A stretch of DNA of 64,000 nucleotides, taken from contig JAHEXG010000002.1 of assembly GCA_023252215.1 (NCBI GenBank), positions 16,315 to 80,314 on the forward strand, given 5' to 3'. This document shows, piece by piece, positions 5,278 to 43,312 of this stretch. The translations under genes and the position numbers were made by a program. Under the pieces are notes generated by a model, which was not told the origin of the DNA, did no database searches, and saw only the letters and a program-made list of their open reading frames with translations. The stretch's first letter is position 1, and the number at the start of each line of letters is the position of its first letter. The stretch is from Candidatus Altiarchaeales archaeon (lineage in GTDB: Archaea; Altiarchaeota; Altiarchaeia; IMC4; QMZM01).

Positions 5278-5721
5278 GTGAAAAAGGATAAAGACGCAAA
5301 AAAAGCCAGAATAGATATCAGGCTAGTAAAAGACTGGCCTGCTCCAGAGATAATCGCCTTATACGAGGCCGCAGGCTGGTGGGACGGATCAACTAAGTCC
5401 AGCGTGAAGAATAACATCTCCGGCAGCTTTGCTTTCGCGGTGGCTGTTGACAGCGAAACCGGAAAAGCGGTAGGTATGGGCCGAGTCCTCTCAGACGGCG
5501 TATCCGACGCATACGTCCAGGACGTCATAGTGCTGCCTGCGTACAGGAAACAAGACATAGGTAAAAAGATAATTTCTGCTCTGCTCGGTGAATGCGCAAA
5601 AAAAAATGTTTCATGGGTCTCACTTATCGCAGAATCCGGAACCATAGATTTCTATTCCGGCCTGGGCTTCAAGGTAATGAAAGGCCACACTCCAATGAAA
5701 TACCAAGGAGGCCAAAAATGA
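5278..5721 (+). CDS. GNAT family N-acetyltransferase
   Basis: 147 aa. Acetyl-CoA motif-A-like QDIGKKII and GNAT-like layout. Probable GTG start. Confidence 0.6.
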   Translation: MKKDKDAKKARIDIRLVKDWPAPEIIALYEAAGWWDGSTKSSVKNNISGSFAFAVAVDSETGKAVGMGRVLSDGVSDAYVQDVIVLPAYRKQDIGKKIISALLGECAKKNVSWVSLIAESGTIDFYSGLGFKVMKGHTPMKYQGGQK

Positions 5722-8533: not shown

Positions 8534-8671
8534 TGCCGAGGGCGGGACTTGAACCCACGACTTCCACGTTTCTCCGCTCCTTTTGTGGCCTTTTGAGTAC
8601 CAATTCAATTTTGTACCCTGTCGGGTACGGGCTTATGAGCGTGGCACTCTAACCAGCTGAGCTACCTCGGC
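8534..8671 (-). tRNA. tRNA-Met(CAU) (elongator or Ile2-type) with about 64-nt intron after position 37
   Basis: Manual fold of the reverse complement gives acceptor GCCGAGG/CCUCGGC, D-arm GCUC-AGCUGGUUA-GAGU, anticodon stem CCACG, loop CUCAUA[intron]A, T-arm GUGGG-UUCAAGU-CCCGC, discriminator A. No CCA encoded. Confidence 0.7.
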
Positions 8672-9022: not shown

Positions 9023-9095
9023 GCCCTGATAGTGTAGCGGCCTATCATGCAAGCCTGTCGAGTTTGCGACTCGGGTTCGAATCCCGATCGGGGCG
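9023..9095 (+). tRNA. tRNA-Asp(GUC)
   Basis: 73 nt. Acceptor GCCCUGA/UCGGGGC, anticodon loop CUGUCGA, T-loop UUCGAAU, discriminator G. No intron. Confidence 0.85.
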
Positions 9096-9167
9096 CTTAT
9101 TTCTTTTTTATAACTGTAGGTATTGTCATTGAATTTTTATTCTTTGAATACGTTATGTGTATAATAG

Positions 9168-26800: not shown

Positions 26801-28099
26801 TTACGGAGTCAGCCTGTGTCGGTCTCTGGGGAAAAGGACTACTTCTCGTATCGCAAGGTCCAGCATCTGCATCATCATCCGGTCTATGCCGAGGCCGAAT
26901 CCGCCGTGGGGTGGCATGCCGTATTTGAATGCGTCCAGGTAGTACTTGAAACTTTCAGGGTCCAATTTCTTTGCCTTAATCTGCGAAAGCAGCATGTCGT
27001 AGTTGTGTATCCTCTGCGCGCCAGACGACACTTCGACGCCCTTGTATTCTAGGTCAAACGACCTTGAGTATTTTTCGTCCCCCGGCATCGTATAGAACGG
27101 CCTGGCAGACAGGGGATACCCATAGATAAAATACAGCTCCGACGAACGCTCGCTCTTCATTATCTCGCCCAATAGTTTCTCACCCTCGGTGTCTATGTCT
27201 TCGCCCGAGGGGATCTTTTTTCCATGGGCTGCGAGCATCTCTATTGCTTCGCCGTAGGATATGCGCAATGCCTTCCCAGGAACAGATATGTCCTTTTTGA
27301 GTATGCCCAATTCCTTTTTGCAGTCAGACGCCGCTTTTATCATAGACAGGACAAGCCCTTCGAGGAGGTTCATAACGTCCTCTTCGTTCTTGATGAACGC
27401 CAGCTCCACGTCGACCGCTGTCACCTCGTTCAAATGCCTGCGGGTATCGTGTTCCTCGGCCCTGAAATAGAAAGTCGTCTCATAGACGCGGTCCAGGCCG
27501 GTCGCCATCATCATCTGCTTGTAGAGCTGAGGCGACTGCGCAAGATACGCCTCTTTGTCGAAATACGATATAGGAAAAAGGTTCGTACCGCCCTCGCTTG
27601 CCGAAGCGATTATCTTGGGAGTATGGATTTCTATGAACTCGTTTCCATCCAGATAACTGCGCGCAGCCGAGACCACTGCGCTCCTTATCTTGAATATTGC
27701 GGCAACGTCCGGCTTACGAACATCCATGAACCGGTTATTCAGCCGGGTATCTATGTCGGCATCGACCTTCGCAGTCACGTCCAATGGAAGCGGAGACTGC
27801 GCCACGCTGACCACGTTCACGCTCAGGGGCGAAACCTCGACACCGCCGGGAGCGCGATCGTTCTTCTTCACGACGCCCTTTACTTCCACGACGGACTCGC
27901 GGGAAACGGAACTGATAGCCTTGAGAACGTCTTCGGTGCATGCGTCTTTCTTGCCTGTGACCTGTATGAAGCCCTCTCTGTCGCGCAGGACCATGAATTT
28001 GAGCTTGCCGAGGTCTCTTACCTCATGCACCCACCCGGCGAGTGCTACTTCTTTTCCTTCCAGCGCAGGAGTTATTTCACTTGAGTAATGGGAACGCAT
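26801..28099 (-). CDS. aspS: Aspartyl-tRNA synthetase, archaeal type
   Basis: 432 aa. N-terminal OB anticodon-binding domain, class II motifs including the GGFGLGIDR-type motif 3. Confidence 0.9.
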
Positions 28100-28166
28100 T
28101 TTGAATCCAGAGAATATGGGTTTAGGGGGCTAAAAATCCATGGGCATATGTGTTATTTAAGGTTTT

Positions 28167-28202
28167 ATTCACTTAAATTCACTTAATGCCTTTTAAAAAG
28201 GC
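28167..28202. promoter_or_regulatory. Tandem 10-bp direct repeat (attcacttaa x2) followed by perfect palindrome gccttttaaaaaggc, between the ASCH gene and aspS
   Basis: Read directly from sequence. Sits 3' of the island genes and 5' of aspS on the minus strand. Confidence 0.3.
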
Positions 28203-28249
28203 AGTTGAATAGGTAAGAAATAATAAGGTAGATAAATAATTCGCCTTTG

Positions 28250-28684
28250 CTACTCGACTAGGAGTGCCTGAAATGCTCCCGCCGTTCCCCCCATTTTCTT
28301 GTACAGCTCCGATCCGTCCAAGTACGCATAATTCTGCGGCGGCCTGAACCCAGAGCATGTTTCGTATGGGTCAATCGGGGTCTCGAATTGCTCGTATTCG
28401 TCTATCTCCAGGGCATGGATCGTTGTCTTGTCCGCGCAGTAAGCAAAGAAGTTGCCGTAATCTATTCCCCCGTACGACTTGCATTTCTCCCAGATATCCT
28501 TAGGCGAGCCGATCAATATCTGTTTTATAGTGAACCAGCCTACTATATGCTGTGTCGGGTTGGATTCGTATACATAGACTTTTTCGATTTTTTCCTTGGG
28601 CGTCTGTTTCCGGAATTCGTATCGCTTTTCACCAGAGAAAATCTTTTCGCTGTATTTTGGTTTAATCGACAACAATATTTTCAT
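28250..28684 (-). CDS. ASCH domain protein
   Basis: N-terminus MKILLSIKPKYSEKIFSGEKRYEFRK is a typical ASCH/PUA-like beta-barrel start. Overlaps the upstream gene by 23 nt. Confidence 0.7.
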   Translation of the reverse strand: MKILLSIKPKYSEKIFSGEKRYEFRKQTPKEKIEKVYVYESNPTQHIVGWFTIKQILIGSPKDIWEKCKSYGGIDYGNFFAYCADKTTIHALEIDEYEQFETPIDPYETCSGFRPPQNYAYLDGSELYKKMGGTAGAFQALLVE

Positions 28685-30176
28685 TGCTTTCTGTATTCTT
28701 GATTATTTTTTCAAAAGACTCATCGGATACCTTTTCGAAGCCCCTCGGAGCGCTCACGGTGTCCGGGATCACTCCAAGTTTTATTAGTCCCTCTAAGTTT
28801 ACTCTTTTTGGAAACGAGTATATATACAAAAAATTCACGATAAAGGACCTGTTTCTCGGATTGTAGTTCCAATGCTCTATGAGCTCTTCGTCGGAAAAGA
28901 CGCTCCTCTTTCGGCACAGGCTTATGAACTGCTCCTGGTCTTTTATCGCGGTATGGATGTTCTCGACAACTCCTATTGTGGTTATCACAGAAGTGTAGTA
29001 TGCCGATCGTCCGGGTTCAGCCGTACGGTAAAATATGATTACATCTCCTGCTTTGAGGTCCCTGTTAACGGATCTTGAAATGTATACCTTTGAGATGGCG
29101 TTTCTGTATGGCTCATTTTCGACAAAATCGAGGGGCGACTCCGTCTTGAGGATTGAATCGGGGAAAAGCTCGGTGTGGTACTGCGGGTATATCGGCACCA
29201 TGTATTTATTTGCCTTCCTGGAAATGAATGGATATGTGTTTTTCGAGTGTTCAAGGGACGCAGTCAAAGAGAGGTCGCGTACGTAGACATCTTCTTTTCC
29301 AGATAAAGATTCCTTTATTCCGTAATAATTGAATCCATAATCCTTTAACAACTCGATCAGTCGGGTTTGGTCCGGGAAGATCGTCACGTATATCTCGTCC
29401 ACCGAGGATTTAAGCGCGTTATCGTAGATTATTTTTATGAATCTTTCCCCGAGTTTGAACCCGCTTAAATCCACTTTGAAAGTCCCTACCTTCAGGCGCT
29501 TCTTTTTCTTGAACGGTGGAGTTATGCCTTCGTAAGGCTCGGATTCGTTCTCGACTTTAAGGTATAAGAATGCCACAATCTTTTTTCCAGCAGTACAGAC
29601 GTATGAGAGCTCCTGTGCCTTTTTGTCGAACCATTTGTCAAAGCCGACGTACGCCTTTCTGAGGCTTTCGAAAAATTCGTCCTTCAAGTCGATGTTACTG
29701 AAGTATCCTTTCTTGACGGACAATACCTTGTAGTCCACCAGACCAGGATTCTCTGAGGATACTTTCTCGATGAAGCTCTCGATGGTGAAAATTTTATCCT
29801 CTATCCCCATCTTCCGGGATTTTTCATGAAGCTTACGGTCTTCGGTTATTAGATAATCGATGCGTCCAGAGTAGACCTCATTTAATAGCAGAGTATCGTT
29901 TTTATCGTTTTCAGTAGCATCCCCTTTTGATAGGATTGATATTTCAGCACCTATCGACGCTTCGGTCGGCAAGAGGTAGTAGCTCTTTAATTTTATGGAA
30001 AATGCTTTGCATGCTTCTTCGTTCTTATTTTTGTTTATCTCCGCGATGGTTACTCTGTGCATGCATTTCTCGTATTTTAATTTGTCCAGCCATCGAAAGA
30101 GTTCTCCTATATCTTTATTACTAGGATTAATGGTTTCTCGATGAATCACTATGTTGGTGTCGAGCAGGACTTTCAT
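28662..30176 (-). CDS. Three-domain protein: N-terminal PIN nuclease, central GNAT-like acetyltransferase fold, C-terminal PUA/ASCH-like domain
   Basis: PIN acidic residues in LLDTNIV, NDTLLL, ITEDRKL. GNAT-like middle domain (KIVAFLYLKV, GFKLGERFIKI, YGF). C-terminal GDVIIFYRTAEP beta-barrel-like. GAGGT SD. AT-rich locus. Confidence 0.6.
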   Translation of the reverse strand: MKVLLDTNIVIHRETINPSNKDIGELFRWLDKLKYEKCMHRVTIAEINKNKNEEACKAFSIKLKSYYLLPTEASIGAEISILSKGDATENDKNDTLLLNEVYSGRIDYLITEDRKLHEKSRKMGIEDKIFTIESFIEKVSSENPGLVDYKVLSVKKGYFSNIDLKDEFFESLRKAYVGFDKWFDKKAQELSYVCTAGKKIVAFLYLKVENESEPYEGITPPFKKKKRLKVGTFKVDLSGFKLGERFIKIIYDNALKSSVDEIYVTIFPDQTRLIELLKDYGFNYYGIKESLSGKEDVYVRDLSLTASLEHSKNTYPFISRKANKYMVPIYPQYHTELFPDSILKTESPLDFVENEPYRNAISKVYISRSVNRDLKAGDVIIFYRTAEPGRSAYYTSVITTIGVVENIHTAIKDQEQFISLCRKRSVFSDEELIEHWNYNPRNRSFIVNFLYIYSFPKRVNLEGLIKLGVIPDTVSAPRGFEKVSDESFEKIIKNTESNENIVVD

Positions 30177-30360
30177 TTAATTTACCTCGTAATATTTTGA
30201 ATATAGTTTAGGATAAATCAGTATCGAAAATATAAATAACGAGACAGAGCATAGGAAAAGTATTACTAAGTCCTCAAGAATCACCTGGCAGACATCAGAT
30301 TATCAGTACCAAAATAATTACAGCATCGCTTAACGCCTTGCAGTTCCCCCAGACCTTAAA

Positions 30361-32373
30361 TCACCGTATCTTCGACCCCACCGGAGCCTCTTTATCGGGA
30401 ACGAGCAGTATCGCCTTCCCGTCCACGTCCGCAGCAAGCAGCATGCCCTCCGACAACACTCCCCGCAGTTCCGCGGGTTTTAGGTTCGCAACGACTACGA
30501 CGTGTTTTCCCAATAGTTCCTCTTTTTTGTAGTAATTGCGTATTCCCGCAACTATCTGCCTTAGAGCCGGTTCTCCGAGGTCGACTTTCAAAACATACAG
30601 CTTGTCAGCCTTGGGGTGCTCGACAACCTCTTTGATAACACCTATCCGTAGTTCGGTCTTCTTGAATTCTTCGTATTCCAGGCAATTTGCGTCCATTTTT
30701 TGTTCCTCCTTCTTTTCAGTGCTTAGATACTTCTTTCCAAAGGCTGCGATCTCGTCATCTTCTATCTTTTTGAATAAGGTAAAAACTTTCCCTATCCTGT
30801 GGCCTTCCCTGACTGCGAGTTCTCCCGCGTCTTCCCAGCGGCACTCTGACACTTTTCCTTCCAGGCCGAGCATCTTCCATATCTTCTCGGACGTGAACGG
30901 AAGGAACGGGTAAGACAGTATCGCAAGAGTCCTGCACAGGTTCGCACACAGGTACAAAGTGGTCGCGTTCTCGTTCTTCCAGGGCTCCTTTTTCTGGAAA
31001 TACTCGTTCCCGCAGTGAGCGATTGCCATCAATTCCTTGAGCGCGTCCAAAAACTTAAAGTGCGCCAGGTGTTTGCCCACCTTCTCAGGCGACTCCCTTA
31101 TGAGCTCCTGCATCTTCTCATCGAGCGCGTCAAACGCCGTCACCTTTGGAACGACAGAGCCGCTGCGCTCCAGGAAAGACATGCTGCGGTTCACAAAATT
31201 GCCGTATGTGCCGATCAGTTCGCTGTTGGTCTTTCCCTGGAAGTCTTTGAGCGAGAAATCCGCGTCCTTCTTTTCAGGGTTTATGCTAAGCAGATAATAG
31301 CGGATAACGTCGGTATCGTACGCTGTAAGCGCGTCATGCAGCCAGAGGACCCAGTTCCTGCTGGTGGACATCTTCTTCCCCTCCAAGGTCAGGTACTCGT
31401 TGCTGGAAACCTGCCAGGGTAACGTGTACTGGCCGTGGGCCATGAGCATCGCGGGCCAGATTATGGCATGGAACGGGATATTGTCTTTGCCAAGGAAGTG
31501 GACTATCTTTGTGTCCGGCATCTGCCAGTACTTCTTCCATTCACCGGGTTTCCCGATTTTTTGGGCCCACTCCTTTGTCGCAGAGATATAACCAATAGGC
31601 GCATCGAACCAGACGTATAAGACCTTCCCCTTCGCGCCTTCGATCGGCACTGGAACGCCCCAGGAGAGGTCTCTTGTAATAGCCCGGTCCTCGAGGCCCT
31701 CCTTTATCCAGCCCAGAGAGAAGTTCCTCGCGTTGTCGGGCCAATGCCGGTTCTCTTCTATCCAGCCGTGCAATTTCGCGGAGAACTCGGAGAGCTTGAA
31801 GAACCAGTGCTCGGTCGCCTTCATGACAGGCGGATTGCGACAGGTAACGCAGTAGGAATCCTTTAATTCATGAGGCTCCAATTGCTTTCCGCAGGCCTCG
31901 CACTGATCGCCCCGCTCATCCTTGCTCCCGCAGTGCGGACAGGTGCCTCGCACGTAGCGGTCAGGCAGAAAACGCTTACAGCTATTGCAATAGGGGCGCT
32001 CTACGACTTTCTTGTATATGTAGCCCTTTTCGAGTATGTCTTTGAAGAACTGCTGAGAGAGCTCATAATGAATGGGTCTCGTGGTCCGGGAAAAATTGTC
32101 AAAGCTTATGCCAAGATCCACAAAGGATTTTTTGATAGCCTCATGATACCGATCGACTATGACCTGGGGAGAAACACCCTCCTTTTCCGCGGCGACCGCT
32201 ATGGGCGTCCCATGCTCGTCCGTGCCCCCGACGAATACGACGTCGTTTCCCTTCATGCGATTAAAACGAACGTACACGTCCGCAGGAATGTAGGCGCCGA
32301 TAGCGTGCCCGACGTGAAGCGGCCCGTTCGCGTAGGGGAGGGCTGCGGTTACGAGGATCTTTTCCTTGACCAT
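30361..32373 (-). CDS. metG: Methionyl-tRNA synthetase
   Basis: HIGH motif (PYANGPLHVGHA), KMSKS motif (KMSTSRN), zinc knuckles, C-terminal tRNA-binding domain. Confidence 0.9.
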   Translation of the reverse strand: MVKEKILVTAALPYANGPLHVGHAIGAYIPADVYVRFNRMKGNDVVFVGGTDEHGTPIAVAAEKEGVSPQVIVDRYHEAIKKSFVDLGISFDNFSRTTRPIHYELSQQFFKDILEKGYIYKKVVERPYCNSCKRFLPDRYVRGTCPHCGSKDERGDQCEACGKQLEPHELKDSYCVTCRNPPVMKATEHWFFKLSEFSAKLHGWIEENRHWPDNARNFSLGWIKEGLEDRAITRDLSWGVPVPIEGAKGKVLYVWFDAPIGYISATKEWAQKIGKPGEWKKYWQMPDTKIVHFLGKDNIPFHAIIWPAMLMAHGQYTLPWQVSSNEYLTLEGKKMSTSRNWVLWLHDALTAYDTDVIRYYLLSINPEKKDADFSLKDFQGKTNSELIGTYGNFVNRSMSFLERSGSVVPKVTAFDALDEKMQELIRESPEKVGKHLAHFKFLDALKELMAIAHCGNEYFQKKEPWKNENATTLYLCANLCRTLAILSYPFLPFTSEKIWKMLGLEGKVSECRWEDAGELAVREGHRIGKVFTLFKKIEDDEIAAFGKKYLSTEKKEEQKMDANCLEYEEFKKTELRIGVIKEVVEHPKADKLYVLKVDLGEPALRQIVAGIRNYYKKEELLGKHVVVVANLKPAELRGVLSEGMLLAADVDGKAILLVPDKEAPVGSKIR

Positions 32374-33563: not shown

Positions 33564-36500
33564 TTAGACATTCATGGTCACAGTTCTGGTCTCCGTTGTT
33601 CCAGATCCTCCCGCAGTCTTGTTCGCTGAGAAATAATAGCTGGATTTGCCGTTCTCAAGCCCTGTCAGATTCCCGTAGAACCGCCATTCTGTGGAACTGT
33701 ATTTCTGCAGCTCCGACTGGTAGAACATGGATATTTCCTTCTGGGAGAGAGCCCTGTTGTATATCCTCACCTCATCTATCAAGCCTTTAAAGTTCCTTCC
33801 TGATATGCCTGAGCCTATTTTAACAGTGCTGCAGGGAGTAATGCTTGAGAACGCGGTTGTTGCATAGCCCGCTACGGATCCGTCCTGATAGAGCGTGAGG
33901 TTCCCGGACTTCGCAGTTATAGCTATGTGCCTCCATACTCCTGTCGGCGTCTGCGCGATTATAGGCAGGTTTATCCCTCCGCTGCTTGTGAATACTGCCA
34001 TGTTACCAATCGCATTAAGCTGCATGTGGACCATACAGCTGTCAGGGGTTCCGACTATAGACTGGAATGTTCCGGTGGTCGCATTCACGTTCACCCAGGC
34101 GATCACCGTGAGCTCGGCTGCGCCGCCCAGCGTACCGTTGACATCGACCTGATCATCCACACCATCGAAGAACATAGCTCCGTTATATTTACCGGATCTT
34201 GACCAGACGGCACCGGATATGTTGCCAACGTGTCCCTTCGAGGAGACGTCCCCAACCTTTGTCGCGCTGTCGCCTGCGGCCGATATGTTGTTGAAGTTAT
34301 AGGCCAATGCAAGAGAGCCATCAAGCACCCTATACGTAGTCCCGTTCCAGTACAGGGAGAGTCCGGATATTGCTGCAGTATTTGACACGTTTACTTGAGC
34401 AAAGCTGCGGTTTATCGTCGCACCATTAGTCTCAGTCGGTGTCTTGAAAGATAACAAGGCAAGAGTAGTTGTTGTCGTGGTCGTCGTGGTAACAAGTGTT
34501 CCGACGTTATTCTGTTCGGCGCCGAATACCGTCTGAGGTTCTGGGAAAACATATTCGGCTACGTAGAGGTCATCCCACCGATTATTGTCAACCGATGCCT
34601 CTGAGCCGCCGGTCTTACCGAGAGACACAAATCCGCTCTTGTAGGGCCATGCAAAGGTATTCCTCTTGGTTCCGTTGAAATACAGGCTCATGTTAGTCCC
34701 GTCGAAACGGAAGCCTTCCATGAACCAGCGGTCCTGCACCGGAACATACTGTCCAAAGCTTGCGGACCCATTGAATCCGGAATAATAACCAATATTGTTA
34801 TTCGGATCACCATGGTGGAAGAACGCAGCATCCAGCGGCCAGACCTGATTTGGAGCAACTCTCCAAAGACCAGTCTGCGCAGTCTCCCCGCCAGTATTAT
34901 CCTCCGCATTCCAGGACTTCACTCCCACAAGATAAGGCTTAGAAATGTTCAAGCCTATTGGAGCCTTTGAAAGATTCAGATAGACATAAGCGTAGCCGTT
35001 CATGCAAGTCTGATAGCCGCTCTCCCCACACTCAGGAGTCTCCAAATAGCCGTTGGCCTCATTGATAGACGCCTCGCTCTGAAGCTTTGTCCAAGCGGAA
35101 TTGACTACACCATCATTAAAGTCATCGAAGAAAAGGAATGTCTTGCTGCCATTGCTCTGAGATACGGCAGAAGCATTGCCGTAGAACAACCAAAGCTGAG
35201 TCCCGTTTTTAGTATTCAAAGAGTCGGCTTTAATCCAAACCTCTGCCCACGAACCGTTATTTACATTCTCTACCCAGTAAGGCAGTGCAGTCGATCCGTT
35301 GCGATTCACGAACCTTAGATCAGAGAAGTCCGGCTTCATGTCACTGTCGTATGTGACTTTAAAGAAAAGACCGAGGTTGGTTGCGTTTTTTGCCACGCTG
35401 ATGTTCACAGGAACGCGCTTGGCAAAGCCGGGGAGGACGGAAGCTGACTGAGTCGTGGTGGTTGTTGTAGTTGTAGTGGTCGTGGTAGTTCTTGTAGTGG
35501 AAGTAGTTGTTGTGGTAGTAGTTGTAGTGGTTGTCATTGTAGTGGTCGTGGTAGTCATTGTAGTGGTCGTGGTAGTCATTGTAGTGGTCGTGGTAGTCAT
35601 TGTAGTGGTCGTGGTAGTCATTGTAGTGGTCGTGGTAGTCGTCGTAGTGGTCGTACCAACGCGAACCGTCCGTACTCCATTGTCTGTCTGCGCCTTGTTC
35701 CCGGCAGAATCATTCGCCCACGCGTAATAAGTATACGTCCCAACGCCCAGATTCGACAGGTTACAATAGAACCGATACTCAGTCGAATTATACTTCTGCA
35801 CCTCAGACTGATAATGAAACCACACCTCCTGCGCAGAAAGCTTGCGACGGTATATGCGCAGTTCGTCTATGCTGCCATTCATGGTCCCTCCGTCAACCCG
35901 CGAACCGACTGTAAGAGCTGCGGCGCTCTTTATGCCGTTACTCCCCAGGTTGTCCGCGTCCACTTCGGTCGCGACGCTCACGCCATTGAAATACATCTGC
36001 GGGCTGCCATCCCCACCGTAGGCAATCGCTACATGATACCAAGTATTCAGCGGAATCGTGCTAACAGACCTCTTAGACATCCTCGAGGTGAACCAGTTAT
36101 TGATCAGCTCCAGATAAATCTTGCCGTCGGCGAAGATCTCCACGCCGTAACCCATATATGGATCGGAATTCATCTTTGCCACTATCGGAGAATGCGCCGT
36201 CGTCCTCCTGTAGACCCAGGCCTCGAAAGAGAACGAATCAGTCCGGTCAAAACTCGTGCTATCCGACGTAGGAACAGTCACAACGTCATTGTATCCGTCA
36301 AAGGATACTGCTTTGCCGTACTTTCCTCCGACGAACGCAGGACACTTGCCGCCCGCCAGGTCGCACGATCCATTGTTCTTGTACTTTGAAGCGTCCACGA
36401 AACGAATCGAGGATTCGCCGAGGGCAGTGTTGTTGTTGAAGCCCTGCGCAAGCACCAGATCCTTGTCGTATACACTGTAATTGACACCATTCCAGTTGAA

Positions 36501-39500
36501 CCACATTGAGTCCAAAACATTGCCTGAACCAGGAGACACGCTCACGTTAAAGACGGCTCCGTTCGGACTGACCTGACTGTTATTGACAGGGGTCGGAGAG
36601 CGGAAAACGACACCGATCAATGTGGTCGCCAGAGTCGTCGAGGTAGTCGTCGTGGTAGACGTTGTAGTGGTCGTACCAACGCGAACCGTCCGTACTCCAT
36701 TGTCTGTCTGCGCCTTGTTCCCGGCAGAATCATTCGCCCACGCGTAATAAGTATACGTCCCAACGCCCAGATTCGACAGGTTACAATAGAACCGATACTC
36801 AGTCGAATTATACTTCTGCACCTCAGACTGATAATGAAACCACACCTCCTGCGCAGAAAGCTTGCGTCTATAGACCCGGACCTCGTCGATCGAACCGTTT
36901 ATAGTCCCCCCGTCGACCCTCGAACCTATGGTGAAAGGAGCGGAACTCTTGATGCTGCTAGACCCCAGCGTATCGAAAACTGTGTCCACACCCACGCTTA
37001 CGCCGTTGAAATACATCTGCGGGCTGCCATCGCCGCCATACGTAACAGCGACGTGATACCACGTATTCACCGGGATTATAGCAGCAGACCTCTTGATCAA
37101 GCGGGTTCTGAACCAATTATAGATCAGCTCAAAAGACAGCCGATCAGAATTGATCTCAAAACCGTAGCCCGTATAAGGATCAGAGGACATCTTTGCAAGG
37201 ATAGGAACAGACAAAGACGACCTGCGATAGACCCATGCCTCGAAAGAGAACGAATCGGTCCGCTCAAAATTCAGGCTCTCAGAATTCGGGACAGTCACAA
37301 CATCGTTTGAGCCGTCAAAAGACAGGGCGGAGCCGAACCTTCCGGAAACGTATGATGGGCATTTCCCCCCTGCAAGGTCGCATGAACCATTATTCCCCTG
37401 CCCGGAAACATCGACAAATAGAGTTGACGACTCGCCGATGCGAGTATTTCCATTAAAGGACTGACCAAGAACAAGATCCTTGTCATAAATGCTGTAGTTG
37501 ACCCCGTTCCAGTTGAACCTCAGGGAGTCAAGGGTCCTGCCCGAACCCGTGGACAGGCTCACATTAAGGACGGCTCCGTTCGGACCCACAAGGCTGTTGT
37601 TGGAAGGAGTGGGGGAACGAAAAGAGACACTGATCAAGGTGGCTGGCAGGGTCGTCGTGGTTGTAGTTGTTGTGCATGAAGTTCGACAAATACCATCACT
37701 GCACATAATCCCGTTTGTTCCACAGGCTTGCCAAGCACCCCATTTACCGATGTCGCAGGAGCAATAACGCACTTGCATCCCAGGACAACCATTAGCCGCG
37801 ATGCAGTTTTTTGTGTCCATTCCTCTCGCATCCGGCCAGCAGTAGGAACATTCTGCGCCGATCACCGTCACAATACCATCAGATTCTGTAATCGCCGCTT
37901 CATTTCCATATTCAAAATTTATTTCAGAATCCGTCAAGTCCAAAATAACGTTCCCTGGAGAAATCGCCATAAAAGTTACAACCGACAGAGCGGTTCCTGC
38001 ACTAGCCTTAGGCTCAAGGCATGCAAAATCGATCCCAACGACACCTGGCTTATTTGCAGAGACGTTGTAGCGCGAGCTGCAAGATGAGAGATAATCGCCT
38101 GACGAAACGCCAGTAACATTCAGTACTGATGAATTGTAATATAATCTGAAACTATATCCATAGATACCATCAAGAGGCGTCGATGCGATCTGCACCGTAA
38201 AGATATCATTTACTTTGACTTGACTAGCAGATGGAACTGCGCTTATAGTCGCTGAAGGGCCCTCAAAAGACTTGAGACCCAGTTTAGTGGTCTTAGCTTG
38301 ATTCGTGGCACTTGAAACGCTTTTCCCGGTTCCGTAGCTTGTAGAAAGAGTGAGCAGATCACCGTAATTCACGTATCCATTCTCATCAAAGTCGGAACGG
38401 ATATCATAGTTCTGCTGGCCTTTATTTGAACCGTATGCCGTAGCAAGAATCAATAGATCGGAGTAATCCACCTTATTATCTCGATTAGCATCTCCTGCGA
38501 GGCCGCCGATTGGATCGCAAACATCGCCTATGTAATTGTGATTATAGTCCATCTGGCCAGGATTACGGTCAAAGGGACAATTATCGTTTTTATCGAATAC
38601 GCCATCGTTGTCGTCGTCGCAGTCATAATAATCGGCATTTCCATCGCCATCGCTATCCCTTTTGGCTGAAAGGCGGAATTCTCCAGAACCAGAATCCATA
38701 TCAACTTCTATGTAATACGTCCCCGAATTGCTGATAACGCAACTCTCAGTTTCTGAACCAATAGTCCTACTTGTACAGAAAGGCTCGCTACCACAGGCAC
38801 TCGAAACATAGAGATCATAATCTGCACTAGAAGACATGCTCAGGTAAACAACGCCGGGAGAACTAAAACTCACCTTATAAAAACCACGCCATAGGTAATT
38901 TAAATCAGGGGTGTAAGTAGCTTTAACGACGCTATCCGGAGAAATCACTGGCGCGTTTGCGCAATAATAGTCGCCGGCATTTGAGACTGCAGCAGACTCG
39001 GGACAGCCGCTATTGCATTCTGGACCGTATGTTGAAAGGCAAGTATCTCTGCAATCTTTGACTCCATCTCCATCAGAGTCGTACAGACAACTGGGAGTAC
39101 TTAGTATATCCACGACGACGACTGAATATATTTTCGTCGGAATGTCTACGGAGATATAGTCGCCATCGGATTTTGGGATTCCTACAGAATCGCATCGCCG
39201 CCAGAGATTGGTTTTGGTTGTCAAATCAGTCTCTATGTTTTTGCCATCGTAAAGGTCTCCGCTAAGCAGTTTTATCTCTATGTGGTTCGTTTGTGTGTTT
39301 GCGGGGAGTTTGAGTAAAACAGGAGCATAATAAAAACGTGTCAGAGCTTTGCCGCCGTTTTTCTCCTGTACGGCATGAATGACATACCTCTTACCAGTAG
39401 GGCGTAATGGGCTGCTATAGGTTAACACGCCAGTTATGGCCAGATCATAATTAATCCCCGGGTCGGGTATGATTCCATCAGTAGAGGGATAAATCGTGGG

Positions 39501-41516
39501 ATAATTTTTGTATGTATCTGAATTCCGTTCTAAATCAGTTACGGCCATGTTGCTCCTGCCTACAGAATCCAAATTTAGATTTGGATCAGCGAACACATCC
39601 TTGTATCCATTATACATCGTCAGGTAATTTGAAAGATTCGAGACGATAAAATCGGGATTGTTATCTGACGATATTTTTGGATAATTGAATTCATTTATAC
39701 CCCGGTTACTCCAAGTCCATCCAACTATAACGCGAGGATCTCTTTGATCTCCGGTTAGAGGGGGATTATTAAACGGATCTTTGTAATGCCCTGGGCGCAT
39801 AGGTTTAAAGGAGGTATCATACGTTTGCTCGCTCCACAAGATATGACAGCCCTTTTCAGTTTCCCCTATGTCGGAGGTAAACTGGTCTGTGCTCGAACCA
39901 TCCTCAGAAGCAGCTAACGAAGGCCATGGAACAAAATAGTCGGAGGAGAAAAGAGCTTTATCAGCTCCTACACCTTCTTTTAACTGCCCTCTCATATGGC
40001 GTATCATGTTAGCATAGGCGTCTAGAGTAAAAGTGTCATTTACATTTAGTCCAAGATTCGAATTACCTTGACTGTTAAGTTTTATCTTTAAATCAGATGC
40101 ATAATCGCTGTTATACACGCCATAAGGAGTATCACTAGGGTATTCAAGGTGAGATATTCTAGTTGCACAGGTTTCCGCAGAACCAAATTTTATTGGGAGA
40201 TTATATGTTTCACCGCCGAGCGTATTGAGTAAATCGCCGCCCATAACAAGTCTCCCAGTATCGTCTACAAAAAATATGTCAAAATCGTAATTCTTCACAA
40301 GCCAACGAAACTGTTTCACCATATGATAATGATAACTGGGGTCATCAGCCCAATTCTCACCTTCAGACAGATCATCGTCAATTTGTTCCCGAGAAAATCC
40401 AGAACCGTCCTCAGCAGTAACGCCCGTCTTGGACACACCATAAGGAGACGCAGTAACGGCATAAGATATGGGGGTCCCCTCGAGTAAAGTCAATCTTTTA
40501 ACAACACCTGAACTATTTTTTTCAACCCAGCCATCAGCCATTAGGTCTGTTTTAGGATTGGGAGAAAGTTCGCATCCAGGAACATGAACAGGGTCATACA
40601 AACCGATAGGATCCATATAGACAGTTACTTTCATCCCATACCTATGAGCAATATCAGATATCTCTCGTATTTTTTTTCTTGCATCAGTAATCGAATAAAT
40701 GCCTAAAGAATTAAAGTTTCCTCGACGGACAGAAGCAGTCATAGGTGGCGTAGAATAATAGCTATTTCCATCCTCGCTTCCTGGAAACCAGCAGCTTGTT
40801 AATTTATTATTAAAAGGACATTCACAGCTACCTTTTTGGAGTGCGGGTTTAATTGTGCAAGCTTCATCCTCGCCGTAGGAATACCACAAATACGCCAAAT
40901 CTAATACGTTTAGCCCATAGCCGGATGCATACTTGATTACTCGTTCCCATTCGCTCGTCCACATTGAATCGATCTTTCCCTGATCTCCCGCGTAAGGTTT
41001 AAGCTTTTCGAAAATTGTTTCCCAGTCGCTTACGGCAACGTAATAGGTAAGCGTCCTGTAGTCCTTCGAAACCCCGAATTCGTCCACGTAGAACCTAAAT
41101 TCTGAGGAGGTACTATTGAATTTAGCGATAACCTTGAAATTTTGACCTACGAAACTGAACCCGCTGGGGGACTTCCAGGCAGCATAGTTACCGGAATTCC
41201 AAACCATGTTAAAATATTTTGTTTCGCCGGGAGCGACAGAAATGGATTTAGAAAGCTGGCCTACCTGGCTATTACTTCCATTATAAATTAAGAGCTGTAG
41301 AGTACCAGAAGCCGTACTTGAACCACCGTTCTGGATAACGGTTGTAAGGTTAACATCACCCCCAGATTTGAAAACCCGCTCAGGATTCCCTAAAGGGTCG
41401 GTCGTCTCCACCGAAACAACCAACGCAGCTAACGCATTATCAGCTAGAGCTAATATCATCAATCCAAGTATTAAAATTTTGCATAAAGATTTAGCATTGA
41501 CCTTTTTTGTTTTCAT
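33564..41516 (-). CDS. Giant secreted surface protein (2650 aa) with signal peptide, PPC-like domain, thrombospondin-type-3-like Ca-binding repeats, dockerin-like repeats, cohesin-like module, three LamG/concanavalin-like domains, DUF2341-like domain and poly-Thr linkers
   Basis: Signal peptide MKTKKVNAKSLCKILILGLMILALA. Ca-binding repeats DSDGDGNADYYDCDDDNDGVFDKNDNCPFD. Dockerin-like DANRDNKVDYSDLLILATAYG and DENGYVNYGDLLTLSTSYG. Cohesin-like VKVNDIFTVQIASTPLDGIYGYSFRLYYNSSVLNV...VVTFMA. LamG-type units duplicated. DUF2341-like LRFVNRNGSTALPYWVE. Confidence 0.85.
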   Translation of the reverse strand: MKTKKVNAKSLCKILILGLMILALADNALAALVVSVETTDPLGNPERVFKSGGDVNLTTVIQNGGSSTASGTLQLLIYNGSNSQVGQLSKSISVAPGETKYFNMVWNSGNYAAWKSPSGFSFVGQNFKVIAKFNSTSSEFRFYVDEFGVSKDYRTLTYYVAVSDWETIFEKLKPYAGDQGKIDSMWTSEWERVIKYASGYGLNVLDLAYLWYSYGEDEACTIKPALQKGSCECPFNNKLTSCWFPGSEDGNSYYSTPPMTASVRRGNFNSLGIYSITDARKKIREISDIAHRYGMKVTVYMDPIGLYDPVHVPGCELSPNPKTDLMADGWVEKNSSGVVKRLTLLEGTPISYAVTASPYGVSKTGVTAEDGSGFSREQIDDDLSEGENWADDPSYHYHMVKQFRWLVKNYDFDIFFVDDTGRLVMGGDLLNTLGGETYNLPIKFGSAETCATRISHLEYPSDTPYGVYNSDYASDLKIKLNSQGNSNLGLNVNDTFTLDAYANMIRHMRGQLKEGVGADKALFSSDYFVPWPSLAASEDGSSTDQFTSDIGETEKGCHILWSEQTYDTSFKPMRPGHYKDPFNNPPLTGDQRDPRVIVGWTWSNRGINEFNYPKISSDNNPDFIVSNLSNYLTMYNGYKDVFADPNLNLDSVGRSNMAVTDLERNSDTYKNYPTIYPSTDGIIPDPGINYDLAITGVLTYSSPLRPTGKRYVIHAVQEKNGGKALTRFYYAPVLLKLPANTQTNHIEIKLLSGDLYDGKNIETDLTTKTNLWRRCDSVGIPKSDGDYISVDIPTKIYSVVVVDILSTPSCLYDSDGDGVKDCRDTCLSTYGPECNSGCPESAAVSNAGDYYCANAPVISPDSVVKATYTPDLNYLWRGFYKVSFSSPGVVYLSMSSSADYDLYVSSACGSEPFCTSRTIGSETESCVISNSGTYYIEVDMDSGSGEFRLSAKRDSDGDGNADYYDCDDDNDGVFDKNDNCPFDRNPGQMDYNHNYIGDVCDPIGGLAGDANRDNKVDYSDLLILATAYGSNKGQQNYDIRSDFDENGYVNYGDLLTLSTSYGTGKSVSSATNQAKTTKLGLKSFEGPSATISAVPSASQVKVNDIFTVQIASTPLDGIYGYSFRLYYNSSVLNVTGVSSGDYLSSCSSRYNVSANKPGVVGIDFACLEPKASAGTALSVVTFMAISPGNVILDLTDSEINFEYGNEAAITESDGIVTVIGAECSYCWPDARGMDTKNCIAANGCPGMQVRYCSCDIGKWGAWQACGTNGIMCSDGICRTSCTTTTTTTTLPATLISVSFRSPTPSNNSLVGPNGAVLNVSLSTGSGRTLDSLRFNWNGVNYSIYDKDLVLGQSFNGNTRIGESSTLFVDVSGQGNNGSCDLAGGKCPSYVSGRFGSALSFDGSNDVVTVPNSESLNFERTDSFSFEAWVYRRSSLSVPILAKMSSDPYTGYGFEINSDRLSFELIYNWFRTRLIKRSAAIIPVNTWYHVAVTYGGDGSPQMYFNGVSVGVDTVFDTLGSSSIKSSAPFTIGSRVDGGTINGSIDEVRVYRRKLSAQEVWFHYQSEVQKYNSTEYRFYCNLSNLGVGTYTYYAWANDSAGNKAQTDNGVRTVRVGTTTTTSTTTTTSTTLATTLIGVVFRSPTPVNNSQVSPNGAVFNVSVSPGSGNVLDSMWFNWNGVNYSVYDKDLVLAQGFNNNTALGESSIRFVDASKYKNNGSCDLAGGKCPAFVGGKYGKAVSFDGYNDVVTVPTSDSTSFDRTDSFSFEAWVYRRTTAHSPIVAKMNSDPYMGYGVEIFADGKIYLELINNWFTSRMSKRSVSTIPLNTWYHVAIAYGGDGSPQMYFNGVSVATEVDADNLGSNGIKSAAALTVGSRVDGGTMNGSIDELRIYRRKLSAQEVWFHYQSEVQKYNSTEYRFYCNLSNLGVGTYTYYAWANDSAGNKAQTDNGVRTVRVGTTTTTTTTTTTMTTTTTTMTTTTTTMTTTTTTMTTTTTTMTTTTTTTTTTTSTTRTTTTTTTTTTTTTQSASVLPGFAKRVPVNISVAKNATNLGLFFKVTYDSDMKPDFSDLRFVNRNGSTALPYWVENVNNGSWAEVWIKADSLNTKNGTQLWLFYGNASAVSQSNGSKTFLFFDDFNDGVVNSAWTKLQSEASINEANGYLETPECGESGYQTCMNGYAYVYLNLSKAPIGLNISKPYLVGVKSWNAEDNTGGETAQTGLWRVAPNQVWPLDAAFFHHGDPNNNIGYYSGFNGSASFGQYVPVQDRWFMEGFRFDGTNMSLYFNGTKRNTFAWPYKSGFVSLGKTGGSEASVDNNRWDDLYVAEYVFPEPQTVFGAEQNNVGTLVTTTTTTTTTLALLSFKTPTETNGATINRSFAQVNVSNTAAISGLSLYWNGTTYRVLDGSLALAYNFNNISAAGDSATKVGDVSSKGHVGNISGAVWSRSGKYNGAMFFDGVDDQVDVNGTLGGAAELTVIAWVNVNATTGTFQSIVGTPDSCMVHMQLNAIGNMAVFTSSGGINLPIIAQTPTGVWRHIAITAKSGNLTLYQDGSVAGYATTAFSSITPCSTVKIGSGISGRNFKGLIDEVRIYNRALSQKEISMFYQSELQKYSSTEWRFYGNLTGLENGKSSYYFSANKTAGGSGTTETRTVTMNV
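35531..35640 (-). repeat. 21-bp tandem repeat, about 5 copies, inside the giant gene, encoding (TTTTTTM)n linker
   Basis: Unit cattgtagtggtcgtggtagt repeated head-to-tail. In-frame on the reverse strand. Confidence 0.85.
35645..36876 (-). repeat. 1020-bp tandem duplication inside the giant gene; 212-bp blocks (35645-35856 and 36665-36876) are 100% identical, the remainder about 75% identical
   Basis: Direct comparison of the two segments in the sequence. Encodes duplicated LamG-containing units ending ...SAQEVWFHYQSEVQKYNSTEYRFYCNLSNLGVGTYTYYAWANDSAGNKAQTDNGVRTVRVGTTTT. Confidence 0.9.
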
Positions 41517-41916: not shown

Positions 41917-43312
41917 GGTTGTCCCATAATTCTTTGTTTGAATTTGTGTTTGTGTATTTATACTTTCTTTCGTAAATCATTATGCAGAGGCGCATTTGTT
42001 ATGGCTTATATTGATTCTTTTAAGGGTCAGAATTGGCTTCTTCCGCCTAGTATTCGTGATATGATTCCGGGGGCCATGTCTGTTTTTTTGTTGAGGATTT
42101 TGTTGATTCTTTGGATTATTCAGGATTTGATTCTGTTTATGAGGACGCAGAGCATCCTGCTTATCATCCTCGTGTTTTGTTGAAGGTTTTGGTTTAGGGT
42201 ATGATGTGCGGTACTCGTTCTTCCCGGAAGATTGCGCGTGCTGCGCGTGAGAATTTTGTTTTCATGTATTTGGCTGAGCGATTATGTCCTGATATAAGAT
42301 GATTGAGGAGGACAATACCTTGGATGATTTGAAAGATGAATTGTTTGACGGCAGGGAAGAAGGCTTAACCGGCGTTGATAGGCGTGATTTAAAGCGTATT
42401 GTGCGGGAGTACAATGAGAGTGAAAACAAGAAGCGGATTAAGAAAAAAATAGGTAAGGCCAAGACGGAGCTTGAAGAGCATGGTTTGAAGAAGGTTTCTC
42501 TTTCGGATCCTGAGCGTCGCATGATGCAGAATAAGCATGGAGTGAGTGAGTTGTGCTATAATATTCAATTGGGTGTTTCCAGTAATCAGATTGTTTTGTC
42601 TTCTGATGTCTGCCAGGATAAACATGATGCGCATCAGTTTATTCCTCAGATGAACAAGCTGCGGGAAAACGTTGAGCTGCAAAAGAACACAAAAATCGGC
42701 GTGGAATGCGCTTACAGCGACAGGGAAAACATCCATTTTGCGGAGGATAAGGGCTTGGATTTGTATGATCCTTCGAGGGCGCAGACTCAGGAATTAGATT
42801 GCAAGGAACAGAATCTCAATCACGACCATTACGAATATGATGAAAAGCACAATGAGATCATTGTAGATGGAACAAGGTATCGATATCGTGGTCCTTATAC
42901 GAGAAATAAGAGCGGGAGGACGCTTGTCACCTTCTACAATCCGCAGATAAAGAAGAAAAAAGACCGTCCGTCCTATTTTAGGGAGCGTCTTAGAATGAGG
43001 AATAAAATGTCCACACCTGAAGATAGACGGATTTATAATCAGCGTAAGACAAGCGTGGAGCCAGTGTAAGGAAACCTGAAAACCAATCGGGGTTAGGGAA
43101 TTTTTACTGAGAAGAAGGGAAAAAGCAAAGATCGAACTAAATTTAGCGTGTATCGCGCACAATTTGCAGAAAATACATCGAATGATGGGCGAAAAAAGCG
43201 GGGTATTGACCCGAAAAGAGGGACGTTTTTTAATTCAACCCCCCAAAAAAAAAGCTTCAGTACCTCAAAAACCAAAAACGAATTATGGGACAGCCTCAGA
43301 CATTTAAACGCC
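41917..43312 (+). mobile_element. IS1182-family insertion sequence remnant with 16-bp imperfect terminal inverted repeats
   Basis: Left IR GGTTGTCCCATAATTC (41917-41932) and right IR (reverse complement) GGCTGTCCCATAATTC (43280-43295). Internal transposase fragments. Lower GC than flanks. Confidence 0.6.
42001..43312 (+). pseudogene. IS1182-family DDE transposase, inactivated by at least 5 frameshifts
   Basis: N-terminus MAYIDSFKGQNWLLPPSIRDMIP then a frame change. ...VCFFVEDFVDSLDYSGFDSVYEDAEHPAYHPRVLLKVLV and ...RSSRKIARAARENFVFMYLAERLCPDIR lie in other frames. Middle ORF 42299..43069 holds SDPERRMMQNKHG...YNIQLGV...SSDVCQDKHDAHQ. C-terminal FGNLKTNRG / REFLLRRREKAKIELNLACIAHNL is again shifted. 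Confidence 0.65.

Follow-up and report, generated by a model that had tools for sequence, protein, structure and literature searches.

The 64,000-nucleotide stretch of Candidatus Altiarchaeales DNA analyzed here (the window; contig JAHEXG010000002.1, positions 16,315 to 80,314) carries a pair of overlapping genes, here called A and B, in about 2.1 kb of lower-GC DNA between the aminoacyl-tRNA synthetase genes aspS and metG. A codes for a three-domain fusion protein and B for a stand-alone ASCH protein, and the pair is an archaeal example of the known "(PIN)-GNAT-EVE + ASCH" family (PDC-M11 in PADLOC), not a new kind of system. The genes at the locus are the following (aa, amino acids; ORF, open reading frame):

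28662..30176, minus strand: gene A, from the ORF list; 504 aa, PIN / GNAT-like / PUA/ASCH(EVE)-like fusion; PDC-M11A, a PIN-extended homolog of "GevT"
28250..28684, minus strand: gene B; 144 aa, stand-alone ASCH protein; PDC-M11B, a homolog of "GevA" and of ZmASCH
28662..28684, minus strand: overlap of the A stop and the B start; 23 nt, ATGAAAATATTGTTGTCGATTAA, a dual-coding junction conserved across the family
26801..28099, same strand as A, B and metG: aspS, identified by Pfam (1.6e-89)
30361..32373, same strand as A, B and aspS: metG, identified by Pfam (1.2e-168)

Family and domains of A and B

Both proteins match the PADLOC models over their full length. A is matched by PDC-M11A (PDLC04422) at 2.3e-208 and 691 bits, with residues 1-503 of 504 aligned to model positions 1-500 of 501, and B by PDC-M11B at 1.5e-43 and 146 bits. 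The full-length match of A, an adjacent ASCH gene on the same strand and the domain order PIN / GNAT-like / PUA-like barrel are features by which the family is recognized, and these three were found at this locus; a fourth, association with defense islands or mobile elements, is seen for close homologs but not at this locus. The PDC-M11 models also take in PIN-less forms.

This architecture has been described before. In Matelska et al. 2017 (PMC5499597), PIN_15 and PIN_17 are PIN domains fused to GNAT-like and PUA-like domains, in operons that always encode a second PUA/ASCH protein; motif A of the GNAT-like domain is reported there as missing, the domain is judged probably inactive, and expanded toxin-antitoxin (TA) systems are predicted. 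Bell, Wolf and Koonin 2020 (PMC7641849) name the class "(PIN)-GNAT-EVE", find an ASCH protein in almost all operons, place PIN forms near type I restriction-modification (R-M) or other defense systems and PIN-less forms in prophages, and state that none of the modules had been experimentally characterized at that time. Both papers credit Iyer et al. 2013 with the first description. The A/B pair resembles these operons in having the three-domain protein followed by a separate ASCH gene, in its patchy archaeal and bacterial spread, and in a non-canonical motif A like that reported by Matelska et al. 2017; the R-M proximity of PIN forms and the prophage location of PIN-less forms are also reproduced here, as detailed below. 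An earlier note on this DNA, made from the sequence alone, held that the module was not a described system, a claim contradicted by these two papers, by PDC-M11 in PADLOC and by homologs named GevT/GevA in a phage record.

The domains of A are laid out as follows (pLDDT, predicted local distance difference test):

29742..30176, minus strand: PIN nuclease domain, aa 1-145; D6, E46, D94 and D113 intact
29223..29729, minus strand: GNAT-fold domain, aa ~150-318; motif A non-canonical
28665..29222, minus strand: C-terminal PUA-like (ASCH/EVE) beta-barrel, aa 319-504
29096-29176, minus strand: low-confidence segment in the barrel region, aa 335-361; pLDDT below 50

Pfam matches to A were weak and all under the cut-offs (PIN_3 5e-4, PIN_12 1e-3, Acetyltransf_4 0.02), and we found no solved structures related to A by sequence. 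An AlphaFold2 model built from an alignment of 51 homologs (pLDDT 80; predicted template modeling score 0.75) was then searched with Foldseek against the Protein Data Bank (PDB), where it matched GNAT acetyltransferases (E of about 2e-6, probability 1.00). At the N-terminus, A has the PIN fold with the four conserved acidic residues of a VapC-like PIN domain; these (D6, E46, D94, D113), together with D91, N99, E100 and E112, are kept in 50-51 of the 51 homologs, and therefore the predicted nuclease site looks functional. The GNAT fold is present without the canonical motif A (Q/R-x-x-G-x-G/A, which binds the acetyl-CoA pyrophosphate): A reads D236-L-S-G239-F-K241, the family consensus is Q-L-N-G-x-K, and the last position is K or R, not G/A, in all 51 homologs. 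Four residues near the cofactor loop (G239, G243, E244 and R245) do not vary among the homologs, and the domain is, to judge from the alignment, divergent and not decayed. The PIN domain, the GNAT-like middle (as a fold) and the PUA/ASCH-like C-terminal barrel that the earlier note had assigned to A were thus all recovered.

The most conserved stretch of A is aa 333-363 (YHTxLFPDSIL...RNAISK), whose invariant residues include P339, S341, I342, E346, R358 and N359. The same stretch is the sole part of the model with pLDDT below 50, which suggests that the segment at aa 335-361 is probably a loop that gains order upon ligand or partner binding.

B scores 27 bits against Pfam ASCH (cut-off 21.2) and combines the ASCH beta-barrel fold with the GxKxxExR octapeptide (PF04266, GKER subgroup), in which G18, K20, E23 and R25 are invariant; the earlier assignment of an ASCH domain stands, and the domain is of the GKER-motif type. 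The GK[T/S]R octapeptide with Thr and the length of ~103-110 aa that mark YqfB-type N4-acetylcytidine (ac4C) amidohydrolases were not found in B. By sequence, the B family includes ZmASCH of Zymomonas mobilis (PDB 5guq; Kim et al. 2017, PMC5615036), for which a crystal structure and nucleic-acid binding have been reported. Of the three positions mutated in ZmASCH, two hold other residues in B (K53 corresponds to Q45 and S128 to N118), and the upstream neighbor of ZmASCH is not of the A family. The C-terminal barrel of A and B share a fold, and both match the ZmASCH fold, but sequence similarity between the barrel and B was undetectable (hhalign probability 0.7%).

In Zymomonas mobilis (L167:4825-6447), the ZmASCH gene lies 48 nt past a 375-aa gene that is unannotated and matches nothing in Pfam or PADLOC. 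ZmASCH was rejected as the partner of a GNAT-EVE protein, given that this upstream gene has no PADLOC match and reaches an hhalign probability of only 0.1% against the A family; the 375-aa gene is possibly another type of partner for an ASCH protein of the B family.

Distribution of the pair and the slot between metG and aspS

The island-specific DNA, with edges derived from alignment with relatives, spans 28140-30228. Its GC content is 0.421 against a window mean of 0.490 (standard deviation 0.029 among windows of the same size), which places it at the 4th percentile as one of two such regions in the window, and A itself (GC 0.423) is the lowest among the 33 ORFs of at least 200 aa. In the comparison proposed in the earlier note, GC is thus low in both the island and A, but GC at third codon positions is only 1.8 standard deviations low in A and normal in B. 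The fraction of F/Y/M/I/N/K is 0.37 in A and B against 0.28 in the flanking genes, so that part of the GC dip is compositional. The low-GC segment with an overlapping gene pair between aspS and metG is confirmed, at about 2.1 kb and with a dip that is real but moderate, as is the 23-nt overlap at 28662-28684. We rejected the dip as a strong sign of recent transfer, being modest and partly compositional. No convincing direct or inverted repeats were found flanking the island, no tRNA gene near it and no recombinase within it.

The host is an Altiarchaeia archaeon, its aspS being 89% and 86% identical to those of two Altiarchaeia genome assemblies (L003 and L004, respectively). L004 keeps the order nifU-metG-[2.66 kb]-aspS-trkA but has no A or B homolog; the genes in its gap code instead for an IS200-like Y1 transposase and two other proteins, one of 249 aa with an acylphosphatase-like N-terminus and one of 161 aa. 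In L003 a different small gene lies directly upstream of aspS, where the contig ends, and in a third relative (L005, 80% aspS identity) there is no metG within 3.9 kb. Alignment of these loci delimits the variable cargo by two short blocks, listed here together with a palindrome inside the island:

30229..30265, minus strand: promoter-like block, 37 nt, TAATACTTTTCCTATGCTCTGTCTCGTTATTTATATT, 3' of metG, ending in the TATA-like TATTTATATT; upstream edge of the variable cargo
28115..28139, minus strand: conserved aspS promoter-like block, ~25 nt, GGATTTTTAGCCCCCTAAACCCATA (GGATTTTTAGCC...); downstream edge of the variable cargo
28188..28202, minus strand: palindrome with a T5 run, GCCTTTTTAAAAGGC, 48 nt past the B stop codon, read from the sequence; a possible operon terminator

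On the aspS side, the promoter-like sequence is common to the window, L003, L004 and L005, and the DNA upstream of the block is unrelated. On the metG side, the block is common to the window and L004 (~5395-5430 there) and is followed by a different cargo gene in each, so the same promoter-like element appears to drive any slot occupant; 30229-30265 would then be a fixed predicted promoter serving a swappable cargo slot. In the window its TATA-like element lies ~55 nt upstream of the A start codon.

The closest A homologs are not in the metG/aspS slot. A copy with 81% identity, in another Altiarchaeota genome (L169), belongs to an island with GIY-YIG, Mrr, YgjP-like, type I HsdR/HsdS and Schlafen/AlbA_2 genes, where it sits between the GIY-YIG gene and the Mrr/type I R-M/Schlafen cluster; one with 84% identity adjoins metal-transport genes, and a copy from Bathyarchaeia (L084) lies ~4.5 kb from a type I R-M system. 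The A/B pair is horizontally acquired and, as the earlier note had assumed, accessory: L004 has other cargo in the same slot, the closest homologs lie elsewhere, and universal synteny between aspS and metG was not observed. The search for the same pair in other defense islands, which that note recommended, was also successful, the Mrr/type I R-M island of L169 being one example.

The cargo pair of L004 (L004:5452-6692) recurs in the L169 island (L169:4608-5850) with 54% and 50% identity, so that both alternative occupants of the slot are found within ~2 kb of each other by the Mrr/type I R-M cluster. The L004 cargo belongs to no PADLOC family, and its sole Pfam match is the acylphosphatase-like N-terminus. 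Since both occupants are near neighbors in a defense island, this unannotated module of ~249 aa and ~161 aa is also a defense candidate and may be an unrecognized defense or TA system.

A word-index search with A returned more than 5,000 homologs, the top ones being ~60% identical and including Bathyarchaeia, Thermoplasmatota, Methanofollis and one WOR-3 bacterium; such identity across phyla indicates horizontal spread. An exhaustive search of 50%-identity representatives gave 1,863 clusters at E <= 1e-3, 446 of them at E <= 1e-30, and the family comes in forms of ~355, ~500 and ~620 aa. A subgroup of ~615-620 aa (e.g., P0222, P0227 and P0234) has an extra N-terminal region of ~120 residues ahead of the PIN domain.

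In nearly all of the 85 loci compared, A comes with a B-type gene. The two genes overlap by exactly 23 nt in 52 of 66 non-redundant loci and by 29 nt in 7 others, and the junction motif, ATGAAAGTnTTATTATCnATTAArCC, is nearly fixed from E. coli phages to archaea. It codes both for the C-terminus of A and for the start of B, MK(V/I)LLSIKP. This conserved dual-coding junction implies tight translational coupling of A and B; its conservation across domains of life points to a strict stoichiometry, which could be useful to experimenters. The parts of the literature on the family that were available to us hold no mention of the conserved junction, and this 23-nt feature and the cargo swapping at the metG/aspS slot are the additions of this analysis.

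A variant operon was seen in Methanofollis aquaemaris CP036172 (L083:10001-14108), where first a 62-aa ORF and then the gene for a 421-aa protein come between the PIN-GNAT-PUA gene and the ASCH partner (PDC-M11B, 1e-50). The 421-aa protein matches GNAT weakly, and its C-terminus is ASCH-like (PDC-M11B, 1e-11). Immediately upstream of the operon is an HTH-Peptidase_M78 + DUF3368 pair.

The family is also found on plasmids and in phages. The record of Escherichia phage PhiR47_2 (PV340567.1) annotates a PIN-less pair directly downstream of cI as "GevT toxin" and "GevA antitoxin". Identity is 40% between residues 159-503 of A and GevT (E 2e-66) and 39% between B and GevA (E 3e-30). The phage pair has the same gene order as A/B and the same 23-nt overlap, whereas GevT has no PIN domain and the pair resides in a lambdoid prophage directly after cI, the position taken by rexAB in lambda. 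GenBank phage records show the PIN-less pair in E. coli lambdoid phages, in SopEPhi and in Lactobacillus Lj965. The 80 loci on viral contigs divide into 5 with the PIN form and 75 without PIN, which reproduces the pattern of Bell et al.

The PIN form is found in the archaeal prophage psiM100 of Methanothermobacter (L166:1554-4346), whose ORFD and ORF5 match PDC-M11A and PDC-M11B. Most of ORFD lies within the annotated "inserted fragment IFa", and the annotation of ORF5, the ASCH partner, gives a similarity to ORF5 of psiM2, a related phage; for these reasons the large gene appears to have been inserted beside a pre-existing ASCH gene.

Possible function of the pair

The PDC-M11 matches, the previous TA and defense predictions, the homology to GevT/GevA, the conservation of the PIN domain, the coupling of the two genes, their accessory status and mobility, the proximity to R-M systems in relatives and the low GC all support a TA or defense role, and we lean toward A/B, a horizontally acquired, self-contained two-gene module, acting in TA-like or abortive-infection defense. 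The suggestion in the earlier note that the pair could be TA-like or anti-phage is supported as such by the computational predictions for the family and by its standing as a PADLOC candidate. We infer a toxicity of A, an antitoxin role of B, an RNA target and a defense phenotype along the following lines. A would be the effector, with its C-terminal PUA-like barrel, and probably also its GNAT-like domain, recognizing a nucleic-acid ligand, for example a modified base or a tRNA, upon which the intact VapC-like PIN domain would cleave RNA. B, a presumed nucleic-acid binder of the ASCH fold made in fixed proportion via the 23-nt overlap, would hold A in check until infection, module loss or a similar trigger.

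Several points weigh against this interpretation. There is no usual type II DNA-binding antitoxin at the locus, the pair is surrounded in the window by housekeeping genes instead of a defense island, and most phage copies are PIN-less, which excludes the PIN domain as the family's core activity. The non-canonical motif A also makes an acetyltransferase step by A doubtful. To our knowledge, the PDC entries of PADLOC are candidates and not validated systems. Our literature search on PDC-M11 and GNAT-EVE found no experimental study of the A + B architecture; apart from the computational papers of 2017 and 2020, it returned only an incidental listing of PDC-M11 in an E. coli O157 strain. Nor did a literature search find a paper with the names GevT/GevA, which go back to one GenBank annotation and are a lead, not evidence of function.

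Comparison with characterized systems gives only partial parallels. VapBC has its antitoxin gene upstream, but the 184-nt gap from A to metG has no ORF; the partner of A lies downstream and is of the ASCH type instead of a DNA-binding VapB, and the PIN domain of A is fused to two further domains. DarTG and TacT/AtaT resemble A/B by functional analogy only, as toxins that modify nucleic acid or tRNA and have a partner acting against them; the partner in DarTG undoes the modification enzymatically. However, A/B have no sequence or fold relation to DarT/DarG, and they differ from TacT/AtaT in that A lacks the canonical acetyl-CoA motif and no ribbon-helix-helix antitoxin is present.

The main rival reading, hinted at in the earlier note, is a different kind of TA system, comparable to DarT/DarG. 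Here the PUA-like barrel of A would guide its GNAT-like domain, which would acylate a base in tRNA, RNA or DNA, or an aminoacyl-tRNA, as the toxic act, and B would be an enzymatic antitoxin that removes the acyl group; the PIN domain would be a second effector, adding RNA cleavage in the archaeal and chromosomal forms. The membership of B in the sequence family of ZmASCH makes this a concrete biochemical hypothesis for the partner protein, since GKER-type ASCH proteins have been reported to deacetylate ac4C in tRNA, with the Lys and Glu of the octapeptide essential (2026 preprint, 10.64898/2026.02.27.708502). Both residues are present in B (K20 and E23), and ZmASCH removed ac4C34 from E. coli tRNA in vitro (10.64898/2026.02.27.708502). 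The invariant residues at the cofactor loop argue against simple decay of the GNAT-like domain, and the protein annotated as a toxin, GevT, is a PIN-less GNAT-PUA form. However, motif A has D in place of Q/R and no G/A at its end, and an acylated product is not known; the judgment of a probably inactive domain by Matelska et al. 2017 points the same way. The ZmASCH data are weak and mixed: the protein was inactive on the free ac4C nucleoside and its over-expression in E. coli gave no significant decrease in ac4C (10.64898/2026.02.27.708502), its RNase activity was weak, measured with a large protein excess and with no acidic catalytic residues behind it (PMC5615036), and it has no A-family neighbor in Zymomonas. 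We consider this acylation scheme rather unlikely. If true, it would give the ac4C "eraser" activity reported for ASCH proteins a place in a widespread, mobile conflict system; we found no such link in the literature.

A modification system without TA logic, proposed by Iyer et al. 2013 as relayed by Matelska et al. and Bell et al., would have A acetylate bases to mark self DNA or RNA, and the PUA-like domains would be the readers. The combination of an enzyme with two readers and the frequent adjacency to type I R-M systems fit such a role, but the fused intact PIN nuclease, the non-canonical cofactor motif, the patchy mobile distribution, with moron-like positions in prophages, and the toxin/antitoxin annotation in one record make it improbable. 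That the pair is an inactive remnant of a mobile module might be read from its solitary insertion with no mobility genes or flanking repeats left; we consider this very unlikely, as both ORFs are undamaged and align with the family models over their full length, all family-invariant residues and the 23-nt junction are kept, and identical A/B copies were recovered in independent metagenome assemblies. Least credible of all is a housekeeping translation factor linked to aspS and metG, acting for example in tRNA processing or modification. The position on the same strand between two aminoacyl-tRNA synthetase genes, and the frequent link of PUA/ASCH domains to translation noted by Bell et al. 2020 (PMC7641849), would suit such a role. 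However, synteny with relatives largely refutes it: in L004, the closest syntenic relative, the same slot lacks the pair and has unrelated cargo with an IS200-like transposase. The closest homologs are in unrelated contexts, copies occur on phages and plasmids, and the island has a lower GC.

The locus alone matters little, being a further copy of a pair described computationally since 2013 and flagged by PADLOC. The family is noteworthy for its ~1,900 clusters at 50% identity in archaea, bacteria, phages and plasmids, for which our search found no published mechanism.

Other features of the window

The other low-GC region of the window, at 38.6-44.0 kb (minimum GC 0.397), comprises an ORF at 42299-43066 with no Pfam match and a gene at 33564-41516 (minus strand) for a predicted surface protein of 2,650 aa. 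This protein has long poly-threonine linkers and, internally, two modules of several hundred residues that are almost the same. At 8534-8671 (minus strand), near a tRNA-Asp (9023-9096, plus strand), a full-length Rfam tRNA match extends over 138 nt that ARAGORN did not call, which is consistent with an intron-containing archaeal tRNA.

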